This document shows, piece by piece, positions 5,489 to 49,278 of a stretch of DNA of 64,000 bases (within the stretch, counting starts at the first letter, position 1; the number at the start of each line of letters is the position of its first letter). The translations under genes and the position numbers were made by a program. The stretch is from a virus. Location: the IMG/VR virus record IMGVR_UViG_3300032241_002679, positions 77,844-141,843 of that record; one strand, given 5' to 3'. A model generated the notes under the pieces. It saw nothing but the letters and a program-made list of their open reading frames with translations. It was not told the DNA's origin and did not search any database.

Positions 5489-7381
5489 TTATCTCAATTC
5501 AGCTACATTAAATGTAACCACACCATCAACTCTAACACCAGCATAGAATCTGTTATTAACAGATTTCTTAGCATAACGTGTCATGATACCTTTAACAGGA
5601 GCAAAGTTGAAAGGATTGTACATAGTTGGGGTTAATTGCAATGGCACATATGGCGCATAGATATAACCAGTATCCAACAATGATTTACCTTTATGACCTA
5701 CAATGACACTGTAAGCAGGAGAATAAGGGTCACGATACACTTGGTAACGACCACTCAATGTTCCAATTCTTTCAATACCCATGTTATATTGGTCTTGCTC
5801 AGGGTTAGCATCACTTACGTGGAAATATTCAAGATCATCGAATATTGCAGAAATTTCTGAAGATACTACGATGAAGTTTGCACCACCACGCAATGTTGAT
5901 TTATGAATTTGTGCGCTAAGTTGATTAATCTTAGTGATAAGAGTTTGGTTCCAGTCTTTTTGTGTATAAGGACTAGCAGCTGAAGAAGCTTTTCTCCAAC
6001 CATTATAATCCCAACGCAATTGCCAAGCACCAAGTTTACGTAAATCTCTAAGGATTTCACGGTCAATTTCAGCAGCAATTTGTTCAGACAACATAGCAGT
6101 CAATTCAGCTTCAGCGTCAATGTTATGGAAAGCACTAACGTCTTGAGCCAATTCAGGTGACCACGTTGCTCTTAATTTTCTTTCTTCAACAGCCACAACA
6201 ACTTCTTGAAGTGTGAAGGTAACTTCTCCAAGTTCTGTTTCAAGTTCCAAAGAACTATATTCAGCCCATGCAAAAGAGAAAATATTAGTATATGCTGATG
6301 CTGTAGAACCAGAAGCTCCTACATAACCATCATAAGTTGATGTACCGTTAACGGCAGCACCAGTAGCAGATGTACCAACTGGATGTCTAAGATCCATCTC
6401 AATATATATTACACCTTGTGGTGATGTTAATGAACCTTTATTTTGAACAATAGCCTTACCATATTGTTGAGTTACTACTCTGAAAGGAACTTCTTTATTA
6501 GCAGCAACAATAACGTTATTATCTTGGTCCAAAATGTTTGAAGAAGTAACACAGTGTAATGAAGCTAAGAAAGATTCAGTATCCATGTTATTACCATCTG
6601 GTCCTGTTAATACTTCAGTACCATTAGAACCACCAGCACCGCCACTAAATCCACTTAAACCGATAATTACACCTCTCAATGAACCATCAGTACTTGTAGG
6701 TAAAGAAGAAGCTGGAGCAGCTACATTAAGATTACCAGTTGAATCAAATGTATAAGCGTTTAATGAAACACCAGTACCTGCACCAGAAGTTTTAATAGTC
6801 AAAGTACCTTTAGAATTATCAAACAAGCCATCATTGTAGAAAATATCATACAAATTTTTAGCATAGAATTGAGTTAATGGTGTGTTATTTGTAGCTTTTA
6901 CTACTGCATAAGGTAATGCAGCATTTGTAGCAGAACCATTGTGTTCACCATTCAATCCAGTATGTGCTGAATATGTTGTACCATATACATCACTACTTGA
7001 AGTTGTGCTATAATCATTTCCTGCAACACCACCACCGTCAACACGGCTAGATGTCTGAGGTACGAAGTAGAACAATTTACCGATAGGCATGTTCATTGCT
7101 TGAACAGATACGATATCGTTAGCCAATAATTTAGAGAATACTCTTCTCACAATTGGGAATACAACTGTTTCGAAAGAACCTGATGAAGTAGCAGTTGTAG
7201 ACTCATTCAAAAGCGTTGATGCTTGGTTCTCATATAATTGGGCAATGTTTTCTTTTACATGACCTTTAAGGCCTTCCAAGAATCCCAAGCTATCCCATTT
7301 TGCTTGAGTTTCTTTACGGATTGCTTTCATATGGTTCAATCCGATGTTACCAACTTGTCCTGATGTTAATAAATGTGACAT
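5489..7381 (-). CDS. gp23: Major capsid protein (T4 gp23-like)
   Basis: VSVQAMNMPIGKLFY, RKLRATWSPELAQD..AFHNIDAEAEL..LSEQIAAEIDREI, YAPYVPL, GIMTRYA motifs. Confidence 0.97.
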   Translation of the reverse strand: MSHLLTSGQVGNIGLNHMKAIRKETQAKWDSLGFLEGLKGHVKENIAQLYENQASTLLNESTTATSSGSFETVVFPIVRRVFSKLLANDIVSVQAMNMPIGKLFYFVPQTSSRVDGGGVAGNDYSTTSSSDVYGTTYSAHTGLNGEHNGSATNAALPYAVVKATNNTPLTQFYAKNLYDIFYNDGLFDNSKGTLTIKTSGAGTGVSLNAYTFDSTGNLNVAAPASSLPTSTDGSLRGVIIGLSGFSGGAGGSNGTEVLTGPDGNNMDTESFLASLHCVTSSNILDQDNNVIVAANKEVPFRVVTQQYGKAIVQNKGSLTSPQGVIYIEMDLRHPVGTSATGAAVNGTSTYDGYVGASGSTASAYTNIFSFAWAEYSSLELETELGEVTFTLQEVVVAVEERKLRATWSPELAQDVSAFHNIDAEAELTAMLSEQIAAEIDREILRDLRKLGAWQLRWDYNGWRKASSAASPYTQKDWNQTLITKINQLSAQIHKSTLRGGANFIVVSSEISAIFDDLEYFHVSDANPEQDQYNMGIERIGTLSGRYQVYRDPYSPAYSVIVGHKGKSLLDTGYIYAPYVPLQLTPTMYNPFNFAPVKGIMTRYAKKSVNNRFYAGVRVDGVVTFNVAELR

Positions 7382-17678: not shown

Positions 17679-20600
17679 TTATCTAGCGCCACTAAATAAC
17701 CACATATATTGTCCAGTTGGATCTTGCATATTTTTTGCTACAATTGGACTAAAATTTGGTCTTTCTGTCTGTTTTTTATATCTATTATTATTTGATACAA
17801 AACCATGTCCCTTCATTCTATCATTTATAATTTCATTAGGACTATTTGGACTAATCCAACTGCTTAACATTGCTTTTGTCTGTTTTTCAAGTCTTTCAAG
17901 ATTTTTAAAAGAATGTTCCAATACCCACAAACACATTGCCATTGCAAAAATTAAATCGTCATGATAACCATCCATATGGTCTGGCCTTCCATTTTTAAAT
18001 ACAAACGTTTTCATTTCTGAAATCATTCTAATTGATTTAATTTTTACTAAATTATTTCTGACTTTTTCTTCGAAGTTTGATATCATCTGTAGACGTATGC
18101 TACTTACTTGAAGGCCTGGTACTTTATTATCTTTTTTAAATGTTTCCATTTGTTTTTGCTTACTTGATAATATTTTACCATTTGGAGTATCGTAATGAAG
18201 TCTCTTGTAATCAAATTCCAATAATTTTAAAACAGTAGAGACACCCATACCACCAGTAATATCCACAATTGTATAGGCCTTATATAATTCACCATATTCC
18301 TCAACTAATTGAGCCAATAAGTCTGGCTGTATTTTACCTTGATATTCCATAACTTGTTCCATGGTTGTGAAGTCCAATATTACTATTGTTGATGAATCCT
18401 CACCATCTCCACGACTTACGTCAACCCCCATGATGTATTGATGCCCCTCTTCTGGCTTCTTCCAAATCCATATTTCATTCTCACTACCATCAATAAAAAG
18501 AGGGTCCTCGACATTAAATTTTTTCTGTTCTTCAATTATTTCTTCACTAATGACATTACCACCACTACCAATAAATGATACATCCAATTCCTGTGCGATC
18601 ATTTTAGCATCATTATTCATACCACGACACATCTCCTCATACCATGAAGATGTTGGTTTATACCCATTTAATATTTTATTATTATATGACTCAAATGTAA
18701 ATTCAAATTCCTCTATTATTTCATCACCCTTAATCCATTTTAAATCTTTATTATATCTCAGATCCTCATACCATTTCATTTCAATTATATTGAAATTATT
18801 TTTTTTAGCTTTAGACTGAGCATATGTCTCATAATATAACTTATCCATACCATTTGGTGTGGATATAAGGGTAGCTTTTCCTCCAGTATTATGGCTTATA
18901 ATACCATTACTAATAAAAGAATTGGTTTCTGGCACATGTAAATCATAGGTATAGTTTTCAGATTTTGAAATTTCAATAATTTCATCAACATAAAAATTTT
19001 TATTAATTTCTACTTTTCTATTTATATTATCTAATATTGGATGTTTTATTTTCTCATTAAGCTTATCAATTGCGTTATATGTTAAACGACTGTATTTTGA
19101 ATTCCAAAATCTTTCTAAAAATCTAACTTTATATTTTGGAATTTTATTATCTGATAGTACAGTTTCTATCTCTCTTTTTTTAACAAAAACAAATCGTTTA
19201 TTTTTAATTTTATTAATTAAAAATTTTTTCTTTTCTTGTTTTCTCTCCAATCTAAAACCGATCTCATCATAAAATTTTATTGCGTTATTTGAATATATGT
19301 ATAAATTATAAATTTCTGTTATATGTTCTTTATTTAATATAATTGAAGACTGGCTAGTTTTTTGATTTTCTTTTTTTATTCTAGAAATAATACCAAAATT
19401 TAACAATAATATTTGTAGTTTTTTAGCTAAATCATGCGATGTAGTTGAATACTTTACTTCTTTTACTGTTGAGCAACCATCCCCATCAAATAATCCCTGT
19501 AAAAATGATTTTATAACGTTCTTACTTGATTTCAAAATACAACTTGGTATTGTTTTATCTCTAGCATTATGTTTTTTAAACCCATAGTATTCTAGCCATG
19601 CAACTAATTTTTTTGAGCTTAAATAATAATGATATTCTCTAGACTTTTTAAACCCACGACCTAATTTTGAGCCATCGTTAATTAGAAAATCTTGTATCTT
19701 TTTATCACCATTAGTAATTACAATTCCACCTTTCTGAAAATTACCCTCAGCAACAAATAATCCTAATAAATAAGCAAAATCTAAATTATTATTTAAATTC
19801 GTTGGAATATTAATTTCCTTTTCGTTTATAGTTGGTTTATAATCAAAATCATATAAAAAATCGCCAAAATAGTTTTGATTATATTGTACTATTGGCATAT
19901 CGCCAACCTTAAGTTCATTAAATCTAACCCATTTATTAATTTCATTATCACTAATGTATATGGGATGTTTCCAACTACCTTCTAATTCAAGACCTAATTT
20001 TGTTTTAATTTTATAGGTTTCCCCGTATTCCGAAACAAATGTCTGGGTAACATCAGTAAGCTTTCCATACATATCACATACTTTATGCGGAGTTTCTAAA
20101 GTTGTAAAACCAATTTGTTTTTTTTCTTTAACCAATTCATCTAATTCTATTAACCCCTCCTTTGTTAAGATTAATGATTCTTTAGTTAAACAACCTAAAG
20201 CAGTCAGAGCAGCACCAAATACAATAGCCCCGTTATCAATATAGGCGGCTTCATCCATTACTAGATATGTCGGTGTAAAACCACGAAGAGCATCCTTTGA
20301 TGTAGCAACGGCTTTAATTCTACTACCATTTGGTAATCTAATTTCTTTTTTAGAATCAGTGATAAAAATTGTTTTTTCCTCATTACGACTATTGCCATAA
20401 TATTCTGGCCCCCATACCCAACGTGGAAGTTGTGATACAAAATCTTTAATTTTAGCTAAAAATTCAAAAGCTAGTTCTTGTTTATTGGCAATAATTAGAA
20501 CAGCTTCAGGATTTTCATCATCTGCAAATGCCGCTTTTATAGCGAGATATGCAGCGGTTGTTGTAGATACACCAGCTTGACGTGGTTTTGTAATTAAATT

Positions 20601-20771
20601 AAAACGTTCTTTTTCGTATGAAAAAATAATTTCTTTTTGTCTTGGAAATAGTTTAAAAGGTACAAATCCTTCTTGTGTTTTGTCAAATGTCTCTAAATAA
20701 GTCTCAATTGCATAAATTGGACTGGATAAACATTTGGCGTATTCTCTTATTATTTCCTCTCTAGTGAGCAT
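17679..20771 (-). CDS. gp17: Terminase large subunit (T4 gp17-like) with intein
   Basis: KPRQAGVST Walker A, LVMDEAA Walker B, ISTPNG motif III, GVDVSRGDGEDSS and HDDL nuclease motifs. Confidence 0.96.
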   Translation of the reverse strand: MLTREEIIREYAKCLSSPIYAIETYLETFDKTQEGFVPFKLFPRQKEIIFSYEKERFNLITKPRQAGVSTTTAAYLAIKAAFADDENPEAVLIIANKQELAFEFLAKIKDFVSQLPRWVWGPEYYGNSRNEEKTIFITDSKKEIRLPNGSRIKAVATSKDALRGFTPTYLVMDEAAYIDNGAIVFGAALTALGCLTKESLILTKEGLIELDELVKEKKQIGFTTLETPHKVCDMYGKLTDVTQTFVSEYGETYKIKTKLGLELEGSWKHPIYISDNEINKWVRFNELKVGDMPIVQYNQNYFGDFLYDFDYKPTINEKEINIPTNLNNNLDFAYLLGLFVAEGNFQKGGIVITNGDKKIQDFLINDGSKLGRGFKKSREYHYYLSSKKLVAWLEYYGFKKHNARDKTIPSCILKSSKNVIKSFLQGLFDGDGCSTVKEVKYSTTSHDLAKKLQILLLNFGIISRIKKENQKTSQSSIILNKEHITEIYNLYIYSNNAIKFYDEIGFRLERKQEKKKFLINKIKNKRFVFVKKREIETVLSDNKIPKYKVRFLERFWNSKYSRLTYNAIDKLNEKIKHPILDNINRKVEINKNFYVDEIIEISKSENYTYDLHVPETNSFISNGIISHNTGGKATLISTPNGMDKLYYETYAQSKAKKNNFNIIEMKWYEDLRYNKDLKWIKGDEIIEEFEFTFESYNNKILNGYKPTSSWYEEMCRGMNNDAKMIAQELDVSFIGSGGNVISEEIIEEQKKFNVEDPLFIDGSENEIWIWKKPEEGHQYIMGVDVSRGDGEDSSTIVILDFTTMEQVMEYQGKIQPDLLAQLVEEYGELYKAYTIVDITGGMGVSTVLKLLEFDYKRLHYDTPNGKILSSKQKQMETFKKDNKVPGLQVSSIRLQMISNFEEKVRNNLVKIKSIRMISEMKTFVFKNGRPDHMDGYHDDLIFAMAMCLWVLEHSFKNLERLEKQTKAMLSSWISPNSPNEIINDRMKGHGFVSNNNRYKKQTERPNFSPIVAKNMQDPTGQYMWLFSGAR
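18888..20192 (-). mobile_element. Intein, 435 aa, LAGLIDADG type, in terminase
   Basis: ALG/CLTKESLI...LLGLFVAEG...FLQGLFDGDG...TYDLHV..ISHN/T. Confidence 0.93.
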
Positions 20772-42932: not shown

Positions 42933-45900
42933 ATGAATAGAGAAATCCTTCCAAAAGTAAAGTTGATTATTAATCAAGCTAGTAAGGAAGCTAAATCATT
43001 TGATGATATTAAAATAAAACCTGAACATATAGTTTTATCTATGATATCTCATGATGATAATGAATGTATTAAAATATTAAAATCACTCAAAGTTGATATG
43101 GGTGATTTACATGATAAAATATCTGATTATTTAAGAAAAAATGATTTAACACCAAGAATTTCGCAGTATGGTAGAAATAAACTACCTTTGTCCGATGAAA
43201 CAAAAATAATATTTAAAAATGTTGATTCTGAGTGTGAAAAATTAAATGATGATGCTATTGATACTCATCATTTAATGCTGAGCATTCTTAAAATAAAAAC
43301 ACCAATTACAAAAATCTTATTTGATGCTGGTGTTAATTACAGGAGCTTTAAAAAAATAATTATGGACAACAGAAATGACATGCCAAAAGAAAACAATGTA
43401 AAAATGGAAAATGATTCAATGGATGATGATTTTCAAGAGCCTGAACGTTTTAAAAAGGTTAAAAAGAAAACTGATTCTAAAACGCCTATTCTTGATAATT
43501 TTTGTCGAGATATTAGTAAGGCTGTTGAAAAAGGCGCAATTGATCCAGTTGTAGGTAGGATCAAAGAAATAAAACGAATAAGCCAAATTCTATCCAGAAG
43601 GAAAAAAAATAATCCAGTATTGATTGGCGAACCTGGTGTCGGAAAGACAGCCATTGTTGAGGGATTGGCACAATTAATTAAAGATGGTAATGCACCACGT
43701 ACTATAGCTAATAAAAAAGTATATAGTCTTGATTTAGCTAGTATTGTTGCTGGCACTAAATATCGTGGACAATTTGAAGAAAGAATGAAAGCTGTTTTGG
43801 AAGAGTGTAAAGCGAATACAGATATTATTTTATTCATTGATGAATTGCATACTATTATTGGTGCTGGTAATGCCTCTGGTTCACTTGATGCAAGCAATAT
43901 TTTTAAACCAGCTCTTGCACGTGGAGAAATACAAATCATTGGCGCAACTACACTTGATGAATATCGTGAACATATTGAAAAGGATGGCGCACTTACAAGA
44001 AGATTTCAACAAGTATTAGTTGAGGAACCTTCTCTTGAAGAGACTAAAATAATTCTCACTAATATTAAAGAAAAATATGAAAAACATCATAAAGTAGTAT
44101 ATACTGATGAGGCTATTGATGAATGCGTGAAATTATCACATCGCTATATAATGGAACGCTCAATGCCAGATAAAGCTATTGATGTACTTGATGAAGCTGG
44201 AGCAGCTACAAATATAACTGTAGAAAAACCACAAATTATTAAGACATTAGAACAGAAAAAAATAGCACTCAATAATAAGAAAAAAGACGTAGTGCTTCAA
44301 CAGAATTATGAAGAAGCTGCTAAGATACGTGATGAAGAAAAAAAGATAGATAATCAACTCTTAAAGCATAATAAAGAATGGGCTGATAGCCTAGATAAAA
44401 AAATCACTACGGTTGGTGTGGAACAAATATCAGAAGTAGTCAGTATGATGACTGGTATACCTCTTACTAAAATTTCTACACAAGAAAGCAAACGCCTATT
44501 GAACCTTGATAAAGAACTGATGGGTAAAGTAATTGGACAGGACGATGCAGTTTCAAAAGTAGTTAAAGCTATTAAAAGAAATAGAGTCGGTATTAAAGAT
44601 AAAAATAAGCCCATTGGAAGCTTTATTTTTCTTGGCCCAACAGGTGTCGGTAAATGTTTTTTATCTGATACTAAGATAATTATAAGAAATAAAAAAACTA
44701 AATCAATCGAAGAAATTGATATTAATGAATTAAAAGATAGATTTGATGAGATACAAAAAAGAATTAAAAAAACTAATAATGTCTTATTGTTTGACAAGCA
44801 TGAATTAGAATCATTAAAGAAAATTACCAAAACAACCAAAATAAGCGATTACGAGGTTTTAACTGACGATGGTTTTGTTGATATTGAAGCATTGCATGAA
44901 ACAATACCATATGAGGTTTACCTTCTTAGGTTATCTGACGGAAAGGAACTTAAATGCGCTGATAATCATATTGTATTTTTAAATGATTATCAAGAAATAT
45001 TTGTGAAAGATTTGCAAATTGGTGATAACGTTATCGTGGAATCAAACGAAACCACAGGATTGGCTAGTGTGCTCGAAGTAAAAAATTTGGGCTATGAAGA
45101 AGCAATGTATGATTTGGAATTAGCAGAAGATTCAAACAGACGATATTATACCAATGGAATATTGTCACATAATACGTATTTGGCCAAATTATTGGCAGAA
45201 TTTGTCTTTGGAGATGTAGATGCTTTGGTTAAAATTGATATGAGTGAATATATGGAAAAACATTCTGTATCAAGACTAATTGGTTCTCCGCCAGGTTACG
45301 TTGGTTATGATCAAGGTGGCCAATTGACAGAAAAAGTACGTAGAAAACCACATTGTGTTATTCTTTTTGATGAAATTGAAAAGGCACATGAAGATGTATT
45401 CAATCTCTTATTACAATTATTGGATGAAGGTCAGTTGACAGATGGACTTGGAAGAAAAGTTAATTTTAAAAATTCATTAATTATACTTACGTCAAATTTA
45501 GGTGTTAAAGAAATTAATACTTTTGGTACATCAATAGGTTTCGAGACTACAGCTACCGTTGCTAGTGAAGAAGCTAGAGCTAGAGGAATAATTGAAAAAA
45601 CACTCAAGAAAAAATTCAGACCAGAATTCCTAAATCGTATAGATGAGAGTATCATTTTCAATGAATTAAAAGAAGATGATATACATAAAATCATATACAA
45701 AGAATTGGAAAAGTTGGAGAACAGACTTAATGAAGTTCATTTTAAACTTAAAATTAATAAAGCAGCCGTTGAATTCTTAGCGAAAGAGGGTTATAGTAAA
45801 GAATATGGTGCTAGACCATTGGGTAGAGCAATCCAGAAATATATCGAAGACCCAGTCGCTGACGAAATTCTGAGCGGAAGTATTACTGAGGGTGAAGTAA

Positions 45901-45974
45901 TAAAAATTAATTTCGATAAGAATAAAAATGAAGTTATAATCAAACCAGATAGGAATAATAAATCTGAAGACTAA
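42933..45974 (+). CDS. clpC: ClpC/ClpB-family AAA+ ATPase with mini-intein
   Basis: Clp-N domain, GEPGVGKT, FIDELH, UVR-like middle helix, GPTGVGK-[intein]-T, LFDEIEKAH, GARPL. Confidence 0.92.
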   Translation: MNREILPKVKLIINQASKEAKSFDDIKIKPEHIVLSMISHDDNECIKILKSLKVDMGDLHDKISDYLRKNDLTPRISQYGRNKLPLSDETKIIFKNVDSECEKLNDDAIDTHHLMLSILKIKTPITKILFDAGVNYRSFKKIIMDNRNDMPKENNVKMENDSMDDDFQEPERFKKVKKKTDSKTPILDNFCRDISKAVEKGAIDPVVGRIKEIKRISQILSRRKKNNPVLIGEPGVGKTAIVEGLAQLIKDGNAPRTIANKKVYSLDLASIVAGTKYRGQFEERMKAVLEECKANTDIILFIDELHTIIGAGNASGSLDASNIFKPALARGEIQIIGATTLDEYREHIEKDGALTRRFQQVLVEEPSLEETKIILTNIKEKYEKHHKVVYTDEAIDECVKLSHRYIMERSMPDKAIDVLDEAGAATNITVEKPQIIKTLEQKKIALNNKKKDVVLQQNYEEAAKIRDEEKKIDNQLLKHNKEWADSLDKKITTVGVEQISEVVSMMTGIPLTKISTQESKRLLNLDKELMGKVIGQDDAVSKVVKAIKRNRVGIKDKNKPIGSFIFLGPTGVGKCFLSDTKIIIRNKKTKSIEEIDINELKDRFDEIQKRIKKTNNVLLFDKHELESLKKITKTTKISDYEVLTDDGFVDIEALHETIPYEVYLLRLSDGKELKCADNHIVFLNDYQEIFVKDLQIGDNVIVESNETTGLASVLEVKNLGYEEAMYDLELAEDSNRRYYTNGILSHNTYLAKLLAEFVFGDVDALVKIDMSEYMEKHSVSRLIGSPPGYVGYDQGGQLTEKVRRKPHCVILFDEIEKAHEDVFNLLLQLLDEGQLTDGLGRKVNFKNSLIILTSNLGVKEINTFGTSIGFETTATVASEEARARGIIEKTLKKKFRPEFLNRIDESIIFNELKEDDIHKIIYKELEKLENRLNEVHFKLKINKAAVEFLAKEGYSKEYGARPLGRAIQKYIEDPVADEILSGSITEGEVIKINFDKNKNEVIIKPDRNNKSED
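44655..45173 (+). mobile_element. Mini-intein, 173 aa, in the second Walker A motif
   Basis: GK/CFLSDTKI...CADNHIV...MYDLEL...LSHN/T; no endonuclease. Confidence 0.92.
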
Positions 45975-45978
45975 TATT

Positions 45979-46002
45979 AAAACCCCACTTTTGTGGGGTT
46001 TT
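45979..46002 (+). terminator. Intrinsic terminator
   Basis: aaaaccccac-tttt-gtggggtttt. Confidence 0.8.
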
Positions 46003-46017
46003 CTTATATTTATAAGC

Positions 46018-46419
46018 ATGAAGAAATTTATAAAAAGTTTACTCAATGAAGGTCTCTTTCATAGAAATTCAAAAGAACAATTGAAGCTAATGGAGGAATT
46101 TATTAACTTTACTTGTAAAGAATTAAACATTGATCCAGTACCAGTAAATCTACAATTTAATCATGATGGACTAGTTACAACTGCAGCATATGGGGATAAA
46201 AAAGTATATGTATATGCTAAAGATCGTGCTATAGTAGATATTATGAGAAGTATAGCACATGAACTTACCCACTTAAAACAAGACCTAGAGGGTAGACTCA
46301 ATCCTAAAAATCATGAAAAAAATAATGCCGCTGGTTCAGATATTGAGAACGAAGCAAATTATAGGGCTGGGGAAATAATAAGAAAATTTGGAAAAATACA
46401 TCCTGAAATTTATCCATGA
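46018..46419 (+). CDS. HEXXH metallopeptidase-like protein with capsid-targeting-like leader
   Basis: MKKFIKSLLNE; RSIAHELTHLKQ..ENEAN; start 4 nt after ATATTTAT. Confidence 0.7.
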   Translation: MKKFIKSLLNEGLFHRNSKEQLKLMEEFINFTCKELNIDPVPVNLQFNHDGLVTTAAYGDKKVYVYAKDRAIVDIMRSIAHELTHLKQDLEGRLNPKNHEKNNAAGSDIENEANYRAGEIIRKFGKIHPEIYP

Positions 46420-46733
46420 TAAATAAAAATGAAATAGAAATTGTTAGAAGAGGCATCTCAAATATGGGGCCAGCCTATACACAAATAGTTAAACAATCCA
46501 GTGATAAAAAAATAATACAAATTGGAAAAGATGTGGTAGACCAATTAGCTGATCAAGCTACCTATGAACCCACAAAAAATGCTATTGGACAAGAAGCAAC
46601 TAATATTCTAATTAGTTGGTACCCAGAGTTTTTTAAGGAAAAAAGAGAATACTATAATAATAATAAATTAAGCGATATTTCAGAGAATAAAAAAACTATT
46701 AAAAAATTTTTAAGGGCTTTTCTTCTTAAGTAA
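46416..46733 (+). CDS. Hypothetical late protein
   Basis: Coupled ORF; C-terminal ISENKKTIKKFLR. Confidence 0.55.
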   Translation: MINKNEIEIVRRGISNMGPAYTQIVKQSSDKKIIQIGKDVVDQLADQATYEPTKNAIGQEATNILISWYPEFFKEKREYYNNNKLSDISENKKTIKKFLRAFLLK

Positions 46734-46991
46734 TTATGCCAATATATTCATGACTAAAACATATTCTTTTATTATCTGCATAATGATCATGATATATGTT
46801 TTTATGTGTAATGTCCTTTCTCAATTTTTTATTCTTGCTGGTCGGCTTCCATAACGGAGAATGTTCACGATAATATCCCATTCGTGGGTGGGAAGTTCTG
46901 GAGAAATATCTAAGACCCTGATCAATATGCATCTGAGCAATTGCATCTGAAAATCTAACACCAATACCCATACCTTGAAAATCTGGAAGAA
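46726..46991 (-). pseudogene. Displaced duplicate 3' half of the GNAT acetyltransferase gene
   Basis: LPDFQGMGIG..EYIG; 53 of 78 residues identical to the end of 47893-48315. Confidence 0.85.
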
Positions 46992-48161
46992 CTTTCCATT
47001 AAAACAAGATATTTATTAATAAATAAAATTTATGAAAACTAAAAATTTTATTGAGAAAGCTAAATTAAAACACGGAAATAAATATGACTATTCGTTAATT
47101 AAATACATTAATAATGAAACAGAAGTTGAAATAATATGTCCAATTCATGGTATTTTTAAACAAAAACCAAAAAAACATATTAATAGAGGTCAAAATTGCC
47201 CCAAATGTACAGGACATTTTATAGATAAAAGTTTTTTTATAGAAAAAGCTAATAAAATTCATAATAATTTTTATGATTATTCTTTGGTTGAATACAAAGA
47301 TAGCACAACTAAAATTAAAATTATATGTCCTATTCATGGAATATTTGAACAAACTCCAAATGCTCATTTATCTAATAAGAATTGTTATAAATGTACAGGT
47401 ACACCTAAGAAAACAACAGAAACATTTATTAACGAAGCAAATAATATACATAAAAATAAGTATGACTATTCATTAACTAATTATCAAAATAATAGTTTTA
47501 AAGTTTCTATTATTTGTAAAATACATGGAATTTTTAAACAAACACCAGCAGCACACTTAAGGGGTCAAGGATGTCCTATTTGTCGAGAGTCAAAGGGTGA
47601 AATTTTAATAAGAAATTTTTTAGAAAATAATCTAATAAAATTTAAACCTCAACATAGATTTAAAGATTGTAAACATAAACTTCCATTACCATTTGACTTT
47701 TATTTACCGACTTTAAATCTATGTATTGAATTTCATGGTCACCAACACTACTTATCATCACATAACTTTGGTGCGGTTAAAAATGAATTTGAATTAATAC
47801 AAATAAGAGATAAAATTAAAATAGAATATTGTATTAAAAATAATATTTCATTATTAATAATTCCTTATTATGAGAACGCATCAATTATTTTATCAAATTT
47901 CTTTAGTACCTATAAATTCAAAACTACCACATAAACGTTTATTATCGGTATAATGATTATTAAATACTTTTTCATGTTTTATGTCAGTACGAACTTTTTT
48001 ATGTTTTGATGTTGGTTTCCATAGTGGTGAGTTCTCTCTATAATTAATTAATCTGGGATGGGCTGTTCTAGAAAAGAATCTATAACCCTGATTAATATGA
48101 ATTTGTGCTATTGCGTCTGAAAATCTAGGACCAATACCCATACCTTGAAAATCTGGAAGAA
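46960..48161. repeat. 32-bp direct repeat, 1170 bp apart
   Basis: accaatacccataccttgaaaatctggaagaa at 46960-46991 and 48130-48161. Confidence 0.92.
47032..47934 (+). CDS. Homing endonuclease: zinc-binding repeats plus PD-(D/E)XK (Vsr-like) nuclease
   Basis: Three KYDYS..Y....IIC.IHG.F.Q.P..H....C..C repeats; LPFDFYLP..CIEFHGHQHY. Confidence 0.85.
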   Translation: MKTKNFIEKAKLKHGNKYDYSLIKYINNETEVEIICPIHGIFKQKPKKHINRGQNCPKCTGHFIDKSFFIEKANKIHNNFYDYSLVEYKDSTTKIKIICPIHGIFEQTPNAHLSNKNCYKCTGTPKKTTETFINEANNIHKNKYDYSLTNYQNNSFKVSIICKIHGIFKQTPAAHLRGQGCPICRESKGEILIRNFLENNLIKFKPQHRFKDCKHKLPLPFDFYLPTLNLCIEFHGHQHYLSSHNFGAVKNEFELIQIRDKIKIEYCIKNNISLLIIPYYENASIILSNFFSTYKFKTTT

Positions 48162-48378
48162 TGCAAATCCTATGACCACGCCATGCATTTTTCATATTTC
48201 CATTTGGCAATGCTAAACTAGCACCAAATGCCACTATTCTATTATTCCATAAACCAATATAACATCTCGATGCTTTATTCAAATCAGAACTTAAATAATG
48301 ATGACCTTTAAACATGTCCCAGATATGATGGCTTGTTCGAAATATTTCGATTTGTATTTTTGGCCTGACAAAAAAAAA
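47893..48378 (-). CDS. GNAT acetyltransferase domain reached by -1 slippage from the ABC-ATPase gene
   Basis: -1 frame opens at T9 and reads VRPKIQIEIFRTSHHIWDMFKGHHYL..LPDFQGMGIG. Confidence 0.8.
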   Translation of the reverse strand, partial: FFFVRPKIQIEIFRTSHHIWDMFKGHHYLSSDLNKASRCYIGLWNNRIVAFGASLALPNGNMKNAWRGHRICILPDFQGMGIGPRFSDAIAQIHINQGYRFFSRTAHPRLINYRENSPLWKPTSKHKKVRTDIKHEKVFNNHYTDNKRLCGSFEFIGTKEI

Positions 48379-48974
48379 CCATTAAAAAATTCACCACTAT
48401 CTGTGTCAATTACCCAATCTGGCTGAATCCAATCCAATATATCACGATGACATGTTGATAATACTATATTATTAATGTCATTATTTCTAATATATCTCGA
48501 AAGACTTACACTGGCCGCTTTAGCTACATCACGATCCACTACACTGGTGAATTCATCTATAATTGCATTTGAATTTAATTTACGAGATAAATCAGCCCTA
48601 AACTTCTCACCATTTGATAAGACATGATATGGTTTATACCACGAAGGTATACTATTCAATCCTACCGCCCCTAGCTTATTTATAGCCTCATCAGGGCTCT
48701 CAAAATGTGAAATGATAGATTTATTGTCATGCCATATAGGAACGGTCTCTTGGCCAAAATTCTTTATCATAGTACTCTTACCAGTACCACTACCTCCAAC
48801 TATTACGCCTATTTTAAATTCAGGAGGAATATTAGGAACACTCCATGGATAAAATTTAGAAGTGCCATCAAAAATACAGTCAAAAGCTTTTTCACTTGCT
48901 AATATAAATTCATCCCTATCAACTATACTAATTAAAGGCTTAGACTCCCTTGATAATTTTATTATTTCATTCAT
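48291..48974 (-). CDS. ABC-type ATPase, N-terminal part of an ABC-GNAT fusion
   Basis: GGSGTGKS, LSNGEKFRA, IIDEFTSVVDR, STCH. Confidence 0.88.
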   Translation of the reverse strand: MNEIIKLSRESKPLISIVDRDEFILASEKAFDCIFDGTSKFYPWSVPNIPPEFKIGVIVGGSGTGKSTMIKNFGQETVPIWHDNKSIISHFESPDEAINKLGAVGLNSIPSWYKPYHVLSNGEKFRADLSRKLNSNAIIDEFTSVVDRDVAKAASVSLSRYIRNNDINNIVLSTCHRDILDWIQPDWVIDTDSGEFFNGFFLSGQKYKSKYFEQAIISGTCLKVIII

Positions 48975-49080
48975 AAATGAAATATATAAAAAAATTAATA
49001 GGTGTAAAGTCTATAAAATAGAATAGCTAGAGGATAAATAAATACCCCCTAGCATACTATTTTATTAATTAAAATTTAAA

Positions 49081-49278
49081 TTATTTGCTAGCTAACTTGC
49101 TGATTTTTTCTTCCAATTTGTTTAATTTGGATTCCAAAATAGCTGTTTTGTCGCCTTTTTTAGCCTGTTCAGCAAGCCATTCTTTCTTTTTAACTTGAAT
49201 TGCTTCGCTTACAATGTTATCAATTAAATCAACCAAATCATTTTCAGAAATTCTAACGGTTTTTTTTGCGTTTGACAT
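49081..49278 (-). CDS. Small late protein with leader-like motif
   Basis: KKTVRISENDLVDLIDNIVSE; ATATTTAT at 49316. Confidence 0.6.
   Translation of the reverse strand: MSNAKKTVRISENDLVDLIDNIVSEAIQVKKKEWLAEQAKKGDKTAILESKLNKLEEKISKLASK

Follow-up and report, generated by a model that had tools for sequence, protein, structure and literature searches.

In a jumbo phage, a selfish endonuclease gene was found 3′ of a GNAT acetyltransferase gene, in a 64,000-nt stretch of viral DNA (the window; positions 77,844 to 141,843 of IMG/VR record IMGVR_UViG_3300032241_002679). Carried with the endonuclease gene is a foreign copy of the last third to two thirds of the GNAT gene, and the native gene end remains 3′ of both as a displaced stump. 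The best explanation, held with good though not full confidence, is a gene-end-replacement element built around a free-standing homing endonuclease. The architecture, the allele classes, a pair of empty and occupied alleles, the conflict between the histories of the gene's two parts and the family of the nuclease are established.

Architecture of the locus

The 3′ part of the GNAT gene is present in duplicate, with the endonuclease ORF between the two copies. As aligned within the window, the direct repeat (46739–46991 and 47909–48161) extends over 253 nt with 74% identity and a start-to-start distance of 1170 nt. The gene-sense 5′ end of both copies consists of 32 identical nucleotides, which code for the end of Ile/Val-Leu-Pro-Asp-Phe-Gln-Gly-Met-Gly-Ile-Gly, that is, GNAT motif A. 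At the protein level 59 of 84 residues are identical from LPDF to the final IG. The features of the locus are as follows.

46726..46992, minus strand: displaced native GNAT 3′ end (stump), codons 52/53 to stop, Type II (ORFs, alignment, tree)
46960..46991, minus strand: 32-nt identical stretch, distal copy (repeat alignment)
46992..47031, no strand: right cassette end, promoter region plus 18-nt spacer abutting the stump (comparison with other cassettes)
47009..47023, plus strand: promoter-like motif ATATTTATTAATAAA, nearly palindromic, 8 nt before the endonuclease ATG (conservation)
47032..47934, plus strand: free-standing homing endonuclease gene, 300 aa, antisense to GNAT (Pfam DUF723, phrog_559/681/9084, fold)
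47893..48168, minus strand: foreign, cassette-borne GNAT 3′ tract (alignments, segment identities, 3′ tree)
47893..48315, minus strand: chimeric GNAT acetyltransferase ORF in use, 140 aa (Pfam Acetyltransf_1, alignments, 3′ tree)
48130..48161, minus strand: 32-nt identical stretch, proximal copy, motif A codons (repeat alignment)
48291..48974, minus strand: ABC-type ATPase ORF of 227 aa, with which the target gene unit begins (phrog_11143)
48372..48380, minus strand: T9 run (A9 on the plus strand), 63 nt upstream of the GNAT ATG (candidate slippage site)

The endonuclease ORF overlaps the end of the GNAT ORF by 42 nt on the opposite strand. A previous model-generated reading of the letters and ORFs (the sequence-only reading) had described this overlap, the duplicated 3′ half and the identical 32-bp stretch at the start of both copies, and all three were recovered here; its count of 53 identical residues in 78 is of the same order as ours.

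Among further contigs of the window phage (n = 2), one carries the cassette and one is broken in the repeat. A second public contig (35.4 kb, ENA and JGI) has the same gene order as the window, and a Logan contig from run ERR2848514 ends within the 32-nt repeat, as is expected of a k=31 graph at a true repeat. The samples that contain the phage include ERR2848514 and ERZ21844627. An assembly artefact was ruled out, since the layout is found in the second contig and in four other phage lineages.

The locus lacks the make-up of a group I or group II intron or of an intein: the nuclease is encoded on the other strand, the GNAT ORF runs without a break and no Rfam intron match was obtained at E-values up to 1 across 46000–49200. 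The proposal of a chimeric gene free of intron and intein is thus upheld. The ORF list of the window contains no recombinase gene adjoining the stump.

The target gene

The GNAT ORF overlaps the ATPase ORF by 25 nt in a different frame. Family phrog_11143 (357 positions) covers both ORFs, and homologues bear the JGI name 'ABC-type ATPase with predicted acetyltransferase domain'. Homologues of the ATPase number 1,562. The T9 run is likely, judging from sequence conservation, to be a slippage site that joins the two frames. It is found at the equivalent place in 32 of 38 loci, while a T10 run in L035 and L037 gives an in-frame ATPase–GNAT fusion, and the GNAT-frame peptide 3′ of the run is conserved among loci. 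A frameshift error between the two ORFs was rejected, as nearly all relatives keep the two-frame layout.

The GNAT ORF in use matches Pfam Acetyltransf_1 with 24.6 bits (cut-off 20.7). Motif A (Gln-x-x-Gly-x-Gly) is present, and Gln-Gly-Met-Gly-Ile-Gly is kept in all loci. An NCBIfam search returned no family for either the GNAT protein or the nuclease.

The endonuclease and its promoter

The endonuclease is composed of three DUF723-type zinc-ribbon DNA-binding modules and a C-terminal Vsr-like (EDxHD) nuclease domain. The stop codon of the gene faces the Leu codon that immediately precedes Cys-Gly-Ser-Phe of the GNAT protein. In an alignment of 12 homologues, Glu190, Asp222, His239 and Asp260 are invariant; they were paired by eye with the residues of the composite EDxHD motif as defined in PMC3239194. 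A sequence search against the PDB gave no match, so a fold search was needed. The AlphaFold model has a pLDDT of 85, and the top four Foldseek matches were to Vsr (1cw0, 1vsr) and I-Bth0305I (3r3p), with probabilities of 0.97–1.00 and TM scores on the target of 0.44–0.59. The E-values of these matches are only 0.01–0.08 because the whole 300-aa model served as the query. By its invariant residues and modelled fold the protein belongs to the EDxHD, or Vsr-like, homing endonucleases, and it is predicted to cleave DNA.

The window nuclease is 49–55% identical to the nucleases of the other occupied lineages described below; those have two modules, so the third zinc-ribbon module is extra. IMG/VR contained no relative of the three-module nuclease above 50% identity beyond the GNAT-linked group, and matches in a phage GenBank collection were confined to generic nuclease segments. 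A second protein with the same zinc-ribbon modules is encoded in the window genome (G000, 21.4–22.1 kb), where no gene-end duplication was found.

The motif ATATTTATTAATAAA occurs five times in the window against an expected 0.76. Upstream of the endonuclease start codon, at a distance of 5–12 nt, ATATTTAT(T)AATAAA is conserved in all five occupied loci. Motifs of the TATTTAT type also stand 6–15 nt upstream of at least 10 other window genes, the large terminase among them. It is plausible that the endonuclease promoter is a 'late' one.

Empty and occupied alleles in related phages

The comparison set comprised 46 related jumbo-phage loci. Five phage lineages have the occupied layout (the window, L002/L003, L006, L016 and L043), and the remaining loci represent the empty allele. 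In each occupied locus the endonuclease gene lies antisense behind the GNAT gene, overlaps its end and is followed by a GNAT 3′ stump. No such stump was found in the remaining loci of the 46, save a short one in L021/L034.

Two allele types were distinguished. The copies in use at all five occupied loci carry the marks of Type I (Ile at codon 90, Lys-His-Lys-Lys and Cys-Gly-Ser-Phe-Glu), and all stumps carry those of the ordinary Type II (Gly at codon 90, Lys-Asn-Lys-Lys and Cys-Phe-Ser-His-Glu). The stumps match their own host lineage, while the 3′ ends in use cluster together across host lineages.

In the window, codons 1–49 of the GNAT gene in use are host-lineage-like, and the sequence from codon 50 to the stop is foreign and of Type I. 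Within this tract Ile-Cys replaces Thr-Val at codons 50–51 and Pro replaces Val63, in addition to the Type I marks. The nearest 3′ ends are those of L043 (79%) and L035 (77%) rather than those of host-lineage relatives. The foreign tract begins 2–3 codons upstream of the repeat, which argues for gene conversion with a short leftward tract. The sequence-only reading had proposed a 1170-bp insertion at motif A; the window stump does start there, but the insertion was not a clean one.

Loci L004 (empty) and L006 (occupied) allow the two states to be compared directly, as that reading had suggested. Their genes in use are 91–94% identical through codon 84 and about 66% identical from codon 85. The L006 stump is 90% identical to the L004 gene end, stop codon and terminator hairpin included, so that over codons 86–136 the displaced fragment is closer to the empty allele than the end in use is (90% vs about 66%). 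This pair, the host-matching stumps and the clustered ends in use bear out the earlier proposal that the GNAT gene took up a new end together with a nuclease, its native end being displaced.

The trees of the two gene parts are in conflict. In the 3′ tree the ends in use of the window, L002, L016 and L043 form one clade with L035 (support 99/96); a 95/87 split separates them from all stumps, and L004 and the L006 stump are sisters (100/99). The 5′ tree distributes the occupied loci over three separate clades, and an AU test on the 5′ data rejects the 3′ clade (p = 1.7e-50).

Type I ends without a nuclease gene are present in five loci (L008, L024, L035, L037 and L044). The Type I end is therefore not strictly tied to the nuclease, and these loci fit either loss of the nuclease or conversion lacking it. 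No close empty-allele relative of the window phage was found: the best IMG/VR match has 79% protein identity, and a search of 5.8 billion proteins returned the window phage itself (100%) and then matches at 79% or less.

Displaced gene ends and their junctions

The displaced half had been described as an open frame, and the window stump is indeed open from 46992 to the stop at 46726, without the 5′ part of the gene; an ATG-initiated ORF of 81 aa lies within it (46971..46726). Its closest relatives are the L002 stump (84% at the nucleotide level) and then L026 (79%), both from host-lineage relatives. The window and L002 stumps differ by 25 nucleotide changes and 4 amino acid changes (dN/dS ~0.02), and the L006 stump differs from L004 by 16 nucleotide changes and 1 amino acid change. 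Stumps thus differ from their relatives almost solely at synonymous sites, which indicates that they were functional until recently. The frame is open in four of the five lineages, the L043 stump having decayed. Judging from the sequences, the intact stumps are more readily understood as functional ends, displaced not long ago, that would act as a downstream homology arm.

The stumps begin at a common position in four lineages, at the His-Pro-Arg codons (codon 86, CAT CCN) behind similar spacers, and these four are spread over three host clades. The window is the exception, with a stump that begins at motif A (codon 52/53) and is paired with the diverged three-module nuclease. The motif A junction of the sequence-only reading therefore applies to the window and not to the other four occupied lineages. 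The position at which a stump starts is taken to mark the probable cut site. Conserved-residue substitutions lie beside both junction classes, namely Gly90 to Ile, and Thr-Val 50–51 to Ile-Cys with Val63 to Pro. The window spacer is like those of the other cassettes (GGAAA(A)GT), with the stump joined at a different codon, and the right-end join to the stump is an illegitimate junction. Repeat identity at the junction amounts to 32 nt in the window and about 8–11 nt in the other occupied lineages.

Alternative explanations

The GNAT 3′ end might instead be a hot boundary of module exchange between co-infecting phages, where short-homology or illegitimate recombination produces the partial duplications and the endonuclease gene is carried along passively, without its product cutting the GNAT gene. 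In L021/L034 a 61-nt, 95% identical duplicate of the gene end surrounds a 2.25-kb two-gene insert with no recognisable nuclease, and L041 and L045, with flanks 99.7% identical, diverge from motif A onward with a nuclease gene in neither. These loci indicate that the GNAT 3′ part is a recombination boundary even without a present nuclease. The region 3′ of the gene is also highly variable among loci, and phage nuclease genes are known at exchange boundaries (PMC10448857). Nevertheless, passive cargo is an unlikely account of the cassette. All long divergent duplications, in five lineages, come with the endonuclease in the same orientation and position. A duplication without the nuclease had been named beforehand as a refuting case; among the long ones there is none, but the short one of L021/L034 is nuclease-free and touches this condition in part. 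Four stumps from three host clades share one start codon position and a related spacer, the ends in use move with the nuclease across host clades, and both junction classes are flanked by the substitutions at conserved residues.

The stump might also be a retained alternative C-terminus, such that recombination at the 32-nt repeats would delete the cassette and switch the specificity of the acetyltransferase, as the sequence-only reading had suggested. The open stumps and the 32 identical nucleotides at the start of the window repeat are in keeping with this idea, but open frames are expected anyway if the stumps were functional until the last homing event. With so short an identity at the junctions of the other lineages, a decayed stump in L043 and no adjoining recombinase gene, a specificity switch is unsupported and very improbable; moreover, deletion runs one way and hence makes no switch. 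Slightly less credible still is an intragenomic tandem duplication of the GNAT 3′ half with later insertion of the nuclease, or else a chimera of two strains made during assembly. Formally, either could give a direct repeat on both sides of an insert. The copies, however, are 74% identical and each is nearer to sequences of other phages than to the other copy, the layout recurs across independent contigs, samples and lineages, and the 3′ tree and the L004/L006 pair contradict both.

Proposed mechanism of gene-end replacement

In the favored gene-end-replacement model, the mobile unit would have three parts. The first is a 3′ part of the ATPase-linked GNAT gene that is foreign and presumably resistant to cleavage; the second is the Vsr-like (EDxHD) endonuclease gene, antisense and preceded by a phage promoter motif of its own; the third is the stump left from the GNAT 3′ end of the previous host. 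Three components of the model are inferred: where the enzymes cut, that the allele in use resists cutting, and that the stump acts as a homology arm. During co-infection with a related phage bearing the ordinary allele, the nuclease would cleave that allele, near motif A in the case of the three-module window enzyme and near the His-Pro-Arg-Met-Gly codons in the case of the relatives' two-module enzymes. Of the two ends at the break, the left would invade the donor GNAT gene and the right would pair with the donor stump. Through repair the recipient would then receive copies of the nuclease gene and of the resistant gene end, and its own gene end would become the new stump. The host gene would remain whole, with neither intron nor intein. 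The first capture at each junction would necessarily be an illegitimate join.

Tentatively, the two cassette classes may represent successive moves of an arms race at one gene, a possibility held with much less confidence than the replacement model itself. The Type I end would have conferred immunity to a two-module nuclease cutting at the His-Pro-Arg-Met-Gly codons. A descendant nuclease with a third zinc-ribbon module, retargeted to motif A about 100 nt upstream, might then have invaded again, with Ile-Cys (codons 50–51) and Pro63 as the new immunity changes. Open stumps would persist because they are renewed at each homing event and serve as the downstream homology arm. If this reading is true, gene-end replacement would be a regular third homing route in phages beside introns and inteins, and the GNAT gene would offer a natural series for the evolution of nuclease retargeting.

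Comparison with known homing systems

By analogy, the mechanism matches the WHO elements of yeast and the mORF hybrids of fungal mitochondria, with the WHO element as the closer analogue. WHO elements reside at the yeast aldolase gene FBA1, where the replacement logic was demonstrated experimentally (Coughlan et al. 2020, PMC7282813). They too consist of a free-standing endonuclease gene behind a full-length host gene, the 3′ end of which is replaced at each homing event. The old 3′ fragment lies behind the endonuclease gene as a proposed second homology arm, fragments share a start position at the cut site, and the 5′ and 3′ trees of the host gene conflict. Some are oriented opposite to the host gene, and splicing is unnecessary. 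The systems differ in that the phage element would spread by co-infection of jumbo phages, whereas WHO elements spread in the yeast nucleus through meiosis. The phage protein has Vsr-like EDxHD and zinc-ribbon modules in place of a LAGLIDADG intein-like protein with a zinc finger, and its cleavage activity is predicted from sequence. In addition, the phage endonuclease ORF overlaps the host gene end, and each locus has one element rather than tandem clusters.

The comparison with fungal mitochondria drawn by the sequence-only reading proved apt. Mobile ORFs carrying a foreign gene C-terminus are known from Glomus (atp6, atp9, cox2 and nad3) and from Allomyces atp6 (PMC3630166, which cites Paquin et al. 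1994), with further cases at cob and atp6 (PMC6279837). The order of foreign C-terminus, endonuclease ORF and native C-terminus is the same, and the native copy likewise resembles the empty allele found in a close relative far more than it resembles the inserted copy. The mitochondrial ORFs code for LAGLIDADG or GIY-YIG enzymes; most share the strand of the host gene, and often they are in phase with it. The phage nuclease gene, of a different family, runs antisense behind a promoter motif of its own.

Intronless homing by free-standing endonucleases is known in phages, for instance for SegF, SegB and MobE of T4 (reviewed in PMC2988022 and summarised in PMC13565253). There, as proposed here, a free-standing nuclease gene located between phage genes cuts a neighbouring conserved gene of nuclease-free relatives, and flanking markers are co-converted. 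In the classical cases, however, both flanks are homologous and the target gene is not doubled, whereas here a replacement end is carried and a stump is left. EDxHD homing endonucleases include I-Bth0305I and phage Hef-type enzymes (PMC3239194), which share with the window enzyme a C-terminal Vsr-like domain with Glu, Asp, His and Asp, an N-terminal DNA-binding region and a phage context. An intron encodes I-Bth0305I, whose N-terminal motifs are of the NUMOD type; the window enzyme comes from a free-standing gene and carries three zinc-ribbon modules of DUF723, a module type described for T5orf172 nucleases (PMC10448857). Within a limited literature search, no published phage example of a nuclease-linked gene-end duplication was found.

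The phage element would fall into the class as defined in yeast, in which the end of a target gene is replaced, the old end is left as a homology arm and splicing is not needed. Such replacement may account for conserved phage genes in which the end and the remainder have separate histories. The loci also provide a compact natural test set for nuclease specificity and resistance, with alleles of the sensitive and the resistant type, junctions of two classes, and enzymes with two or three modules. Annotators should note that a short 'hypothetical' ORF that follows a nuclease gene may be a displaced gene end.

Organization of the GNAT locus

A repeat search of the window returned one direct repeat of 253 nt (46739-46991 and 47909-48161; 74% identity; spacing 1170 nt). 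By pairwise alignment, both copies start in gene sense with 32 identical bases (46960-46991 = 48130-48161), which encode motif A of the GNAT acetyltransferase, and the two GNAT 3' copies have 59 of 84 residues in common. The earlier proposal of a duplicated GNAT 3' part with an antisense nuclease between the copies was thus borne out by the repeat, the 32-nt identity and the overlapping reading frames.

Reading frames at the GNAT locus (window positions)
48974..48291, minus strand: ABC-type ATPase, 227 aa; precedes the GNAT frame and overlaps it by 25 nt in another frame
48315..47893, minus strand: in-use (full-length, chimeric) GNAT gene, 140 aa; Pfam Acetyltransf_1 above cut-off
47032..47934, plus strand: nuclease, 300 aa; 42-nt overlap with the GNAT end
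46992 to stop at 46726, minus strand: second repeat copy, the displaced native 3' end (stump); frame open

A 105-aa ORF (46416-46733, plus strand) converges on the stump, whose stop codon it overlaps by 8 nt. It has no homologue in the 46 related loci.

These 46 loci were collected from IMG/VR by a scan with the ATPase, and every part was sought in all of them. Most have a single GNAT copy and lack the nuclease. The cassette, a foreign GNAT 3' part plus the nuclease gene, was found in L002/L003 (one phage sampled twice), L006, L016 and L043. Their nuclease genes (238-242 aa, two zinc-ribbon modules) lie antisense behind GNAT and overlap its end, and each is followed by a GNAT 3' stump; the L043 stump is decayed, and the other three (L002, L006 and L016) keep an open frame. 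When the 4 kb downstream were scanned for motifs in 38 loci, the only further stumps were those of L021/L034. Protein and codon alignments revealed two types of sequence in the gene's last third.

Allele types of the GNAT gene end
Type I: codon 90 Ile; Lys-His-Lys-Lys; Cys-Gly-Ser-Phe-Glu; every in-use copy adjoining a nuclease gene
Type II: codon 90 Gly; Lys-Asn-Lys-Lys; Cys-Phe-Ser-His-Glu; most loci and every stump

Type I ends also occur without the nuclease in L008, L024, L035 and L044, and partly in L037, L045 and L046.

Displacement of the native gene end

The comparison with empty alleles that the sequence-only reading had proposed was made with L004 (empty) and L006 (occupied), which have about 86% DNA identity across 10 kb. 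The in-use gene of L006 matches L004 at 91-94% identity through codon 84 and at about 66% from codon 85. The L006 stump, starting at the His-Pro-Arg codons, shares 90% identity with the end of the L004 gene over a stretch that takes in the stop codon and the terminator hairpin. The pair shows directly that a genome resembling L004 took up a block made of the foreign gene end and the nuclease gene, which displaced its own gene end downstream. No close empty allele of the window phage itself was found among the relatives.

In the 3' tree (codons 86-136), one clade (support 99/96) unites L035 with the in-use ends of the window phage, L002, L016 and L043, and it joins L006 and four nuclease-less Type I loci in a group of ten (92/90). 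A 95/87 split separates all four stumps from the in-use ends; L004 and the L006 stump are sisters (100/99), and the stump of the window phage adjoins the L002 stump and L026. The 5' tree (807 columns; ATPase and GNAT codons 1-49) places the occupied loci in three separate starred clades: the window phage, L002 and L016 with empty L026, L043 with L011/L036, and L006 with L004. A 100/99 split sets L035 apart. An AU test on the 5' data rejected the 3' clade (p = 1.7e-50). The conflict between the trees and this rejection show that the two parts of the gene differ in history, the 3' part moving with the nuclease.

The differences between stumps and their nearest relatives are almost all synonymous (16 nucleotide changes and 1 amino acid change for L006 against L004; 25 and 4 for the window stump against that of L002), so the stumps were under protein-level selection until recently. 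The model for WHO elements, yeast homing elements that replace a gene end, predicts this because each homing event turns the recipient's working end into a new stump.

The nuclease, its junctions and its upstream motif

The window nuclease has three zinc-ribbon modules in tandem (Pfam DUF723; 189-nt repeats in the DNA), and its C-terminal domain matches PHROG families annotated as homing or intron-encoded nucleases. When the nuclease was aligned with 11 homologues, Glu190, Asp222, His239 and Asp260 were the same in every sequence; they appear to correspond to the composite EDxHD motif described for I-Bth0305I and for Hef-type enzymes of phages (PMC3239194). The four best PDB matches of the AlphaFold model (pLDDT 85) were Vsr endonuclease and the I-Bth0305I catalytic domain, with E-values that are weak because the whole protein was the query. 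No intron-like RNA was detectable around the nuclease gene, and its antisense orientation rules out an intein; the chimeric gene had been read as free of both, and this held.

The window nuclease is only 49-55% identical to those of the other occupied loci, its third module being extra. For other phage nucleases, such modules are described as being gained or lost through recombination between repeats (PMC10448857). In every occupied locus the nuclease stop codon lies antisense within or adjoining the Cys-Gly-Ser-Phe codons. Elsewhere in the window phage's genome (G000:C1:20680-22161; L050 778-2259, minus strand), a 493-aa protein combines a longer C-terminal part with three zinc-ribbon modules that are close relatives of the modules in the GNAT-linked nuclease. 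Its gene is not accompanied by a gene-end duplication.

Two kinds of junction were seen. In L002, L006, L016 and L043 the stump begins at codon 86 and is preceded by the conserved motif ATATTTAT(T)AATAAA and a 17-18-nt spacer that is much alike in the four loci. This points to a single illegitimate join at the outset, which homing then carried into three host clades. The window stump begins at codon 52/53, and the foreign tract of the in-use copy starts at codons 50-51, with Ile-Cys, common only to this copy and L024, replacing the usual Thr-Val; Val63 is changed to Pro within the tract. We infer that the window cassette may be a second, independent capture by a retargeted enzyme.

The motif upstream of the nuclease gene recurs in conserved form in all five cassettes and has 5 matches in the window against 0.76 expected. 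A relaxed form is found 6-15 nt upstream of ten or more other genes, the large terminase included, and the motif also precedes unrelated downstream genes in L044 and L045. Its enrichment and its presence before many other genes thus point to a general phage promoter-like element; a 'late' promoter is plausible.

Mechanism and alternatives

Feature for feature, the data match the yeast WHO elements, whose mechanism model has been proposed and partly demonstrated (PMC7282813), and the gene hybrids made by mORFs, mobile endonuclease ORFs of fungal mitochondria (PMC3630166). The sequence-only reading had anticipated the likeness to the mitochondrial elements. By analogy, the nuclease would cut the ordinary allele. 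The left break end would take the donor's gene as template and the right would pair with the donor's stump as a homology arm, so that a presumably resistant gene end and the nuclease gene would be copied into the recipient, whose old end would become the new stump.

That the GNAT gene end is instead a general exchange boundary seems unlikely, although several loci could be read in that way. L021 and L034 have a 61-nt, 95% identical repeat of the last 20 GNAT codons (7000-7061 and 9255-9316 in L021; L034 likewise) around a 2.25-kb insert with two same-strand genes (378 and 310 aa) of no assigned function and no recognisable nuclease domain or signature. Here the gene end is duplicated with no homing nuclease that can be recognised, which corresponds in part to the case that the sequence-only reading had set against its own proposal; the duplication extends over only 61 nt, and elsewhere stump and nuclease occur together. 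L041 and L045 both lack a nuclease gene. Their flanks are 99.7% identical, but from GNAT motif A onward the two become increasingly different up to the stop codon (locus positions about 6820-7090), and their downstream genes differ; this marks a recombination boundary inside the gene. These loci and the nuclease-less Type I ends also fit the life cycle of a homing element, with invasion, loss and a resistant allele left behind. The earlier suggestion that the stump is kept as a switchable alternative C-terminus was not upheld and is very improbable: no long stretch of identity exists at the junction in the other four lineages, one of the stumps is decayed, no recombinase is nearby, and deletion between the repeats would be irreversible.

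T4-type phages offer classic examples of free-standing homing nucleases with co-conversion (PMC2988022; PMC13565253), and the gene-end-replacing kind is already known from yeast nuclei and fungal mitochondria. No published gene-end-replacing layout in phages was found in the literature searched; the comparative series here is unusually complete.

The target gene and the phage

The two-frame ATPase/GNAT layout is not a sequence error, since it is kept in nearly all relatives. A single PHROG profile, phrog_11143 (357 positions), spans both frames, and JGI names the homologues 'ABC-type ATPase with predicted acetyltransferase domain'. A T9 run in gene sense (A9 on the plus strand; 48372-48380) lies 63 nt upstream of the GNAT ATG, and 32 of 38 related loci have it at the same position. 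Where the run is T9, the GNAT frame is open from that point and encodes a conserved peptide, Phe-Phe-Phe-Val-Arg-Pro...Trp-x-Met-Phe-Lys, and in L035 and L037 a T10 run gives one in-frame ATPase-GNAT protein. This suggests that transcriptional slippage or a -1 frameshift at the run may yield a fused ABC-ATPase-GNAT protein.

The viral record is 141.8 kb long and rated 40% complete by CheckV; the window is its last 64 kb. Related contigs of up to 353-368 kb indicate a jumbo phage of roughly 350 kb. A ClpB/ClpC-like ATPase (42933-45974, plus strand, 1013 aa) has an intein in its second P-loop, with the residue order Gly-Val-Gly-Lys, then Cys...His-Asn, then Thr. Terminase matches of the large terminase (17679-20771, minus strand, 1030 aa) are split between the N-terminal 190 residues and residues 730-950, and the gene probably carries at least one inserted element. 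An AT-rich motif of the type TATTTAT(A/T) stands 6-15 nt before many starts (2177, 20771, 21839, 29355, 29644, 34679, 41475, 47032, 53895 and 56343), and no Shine-Dalgarno sequence is evident in between. This motif may represent a promoter class of the phage group; its position recalls T4 late promoters.
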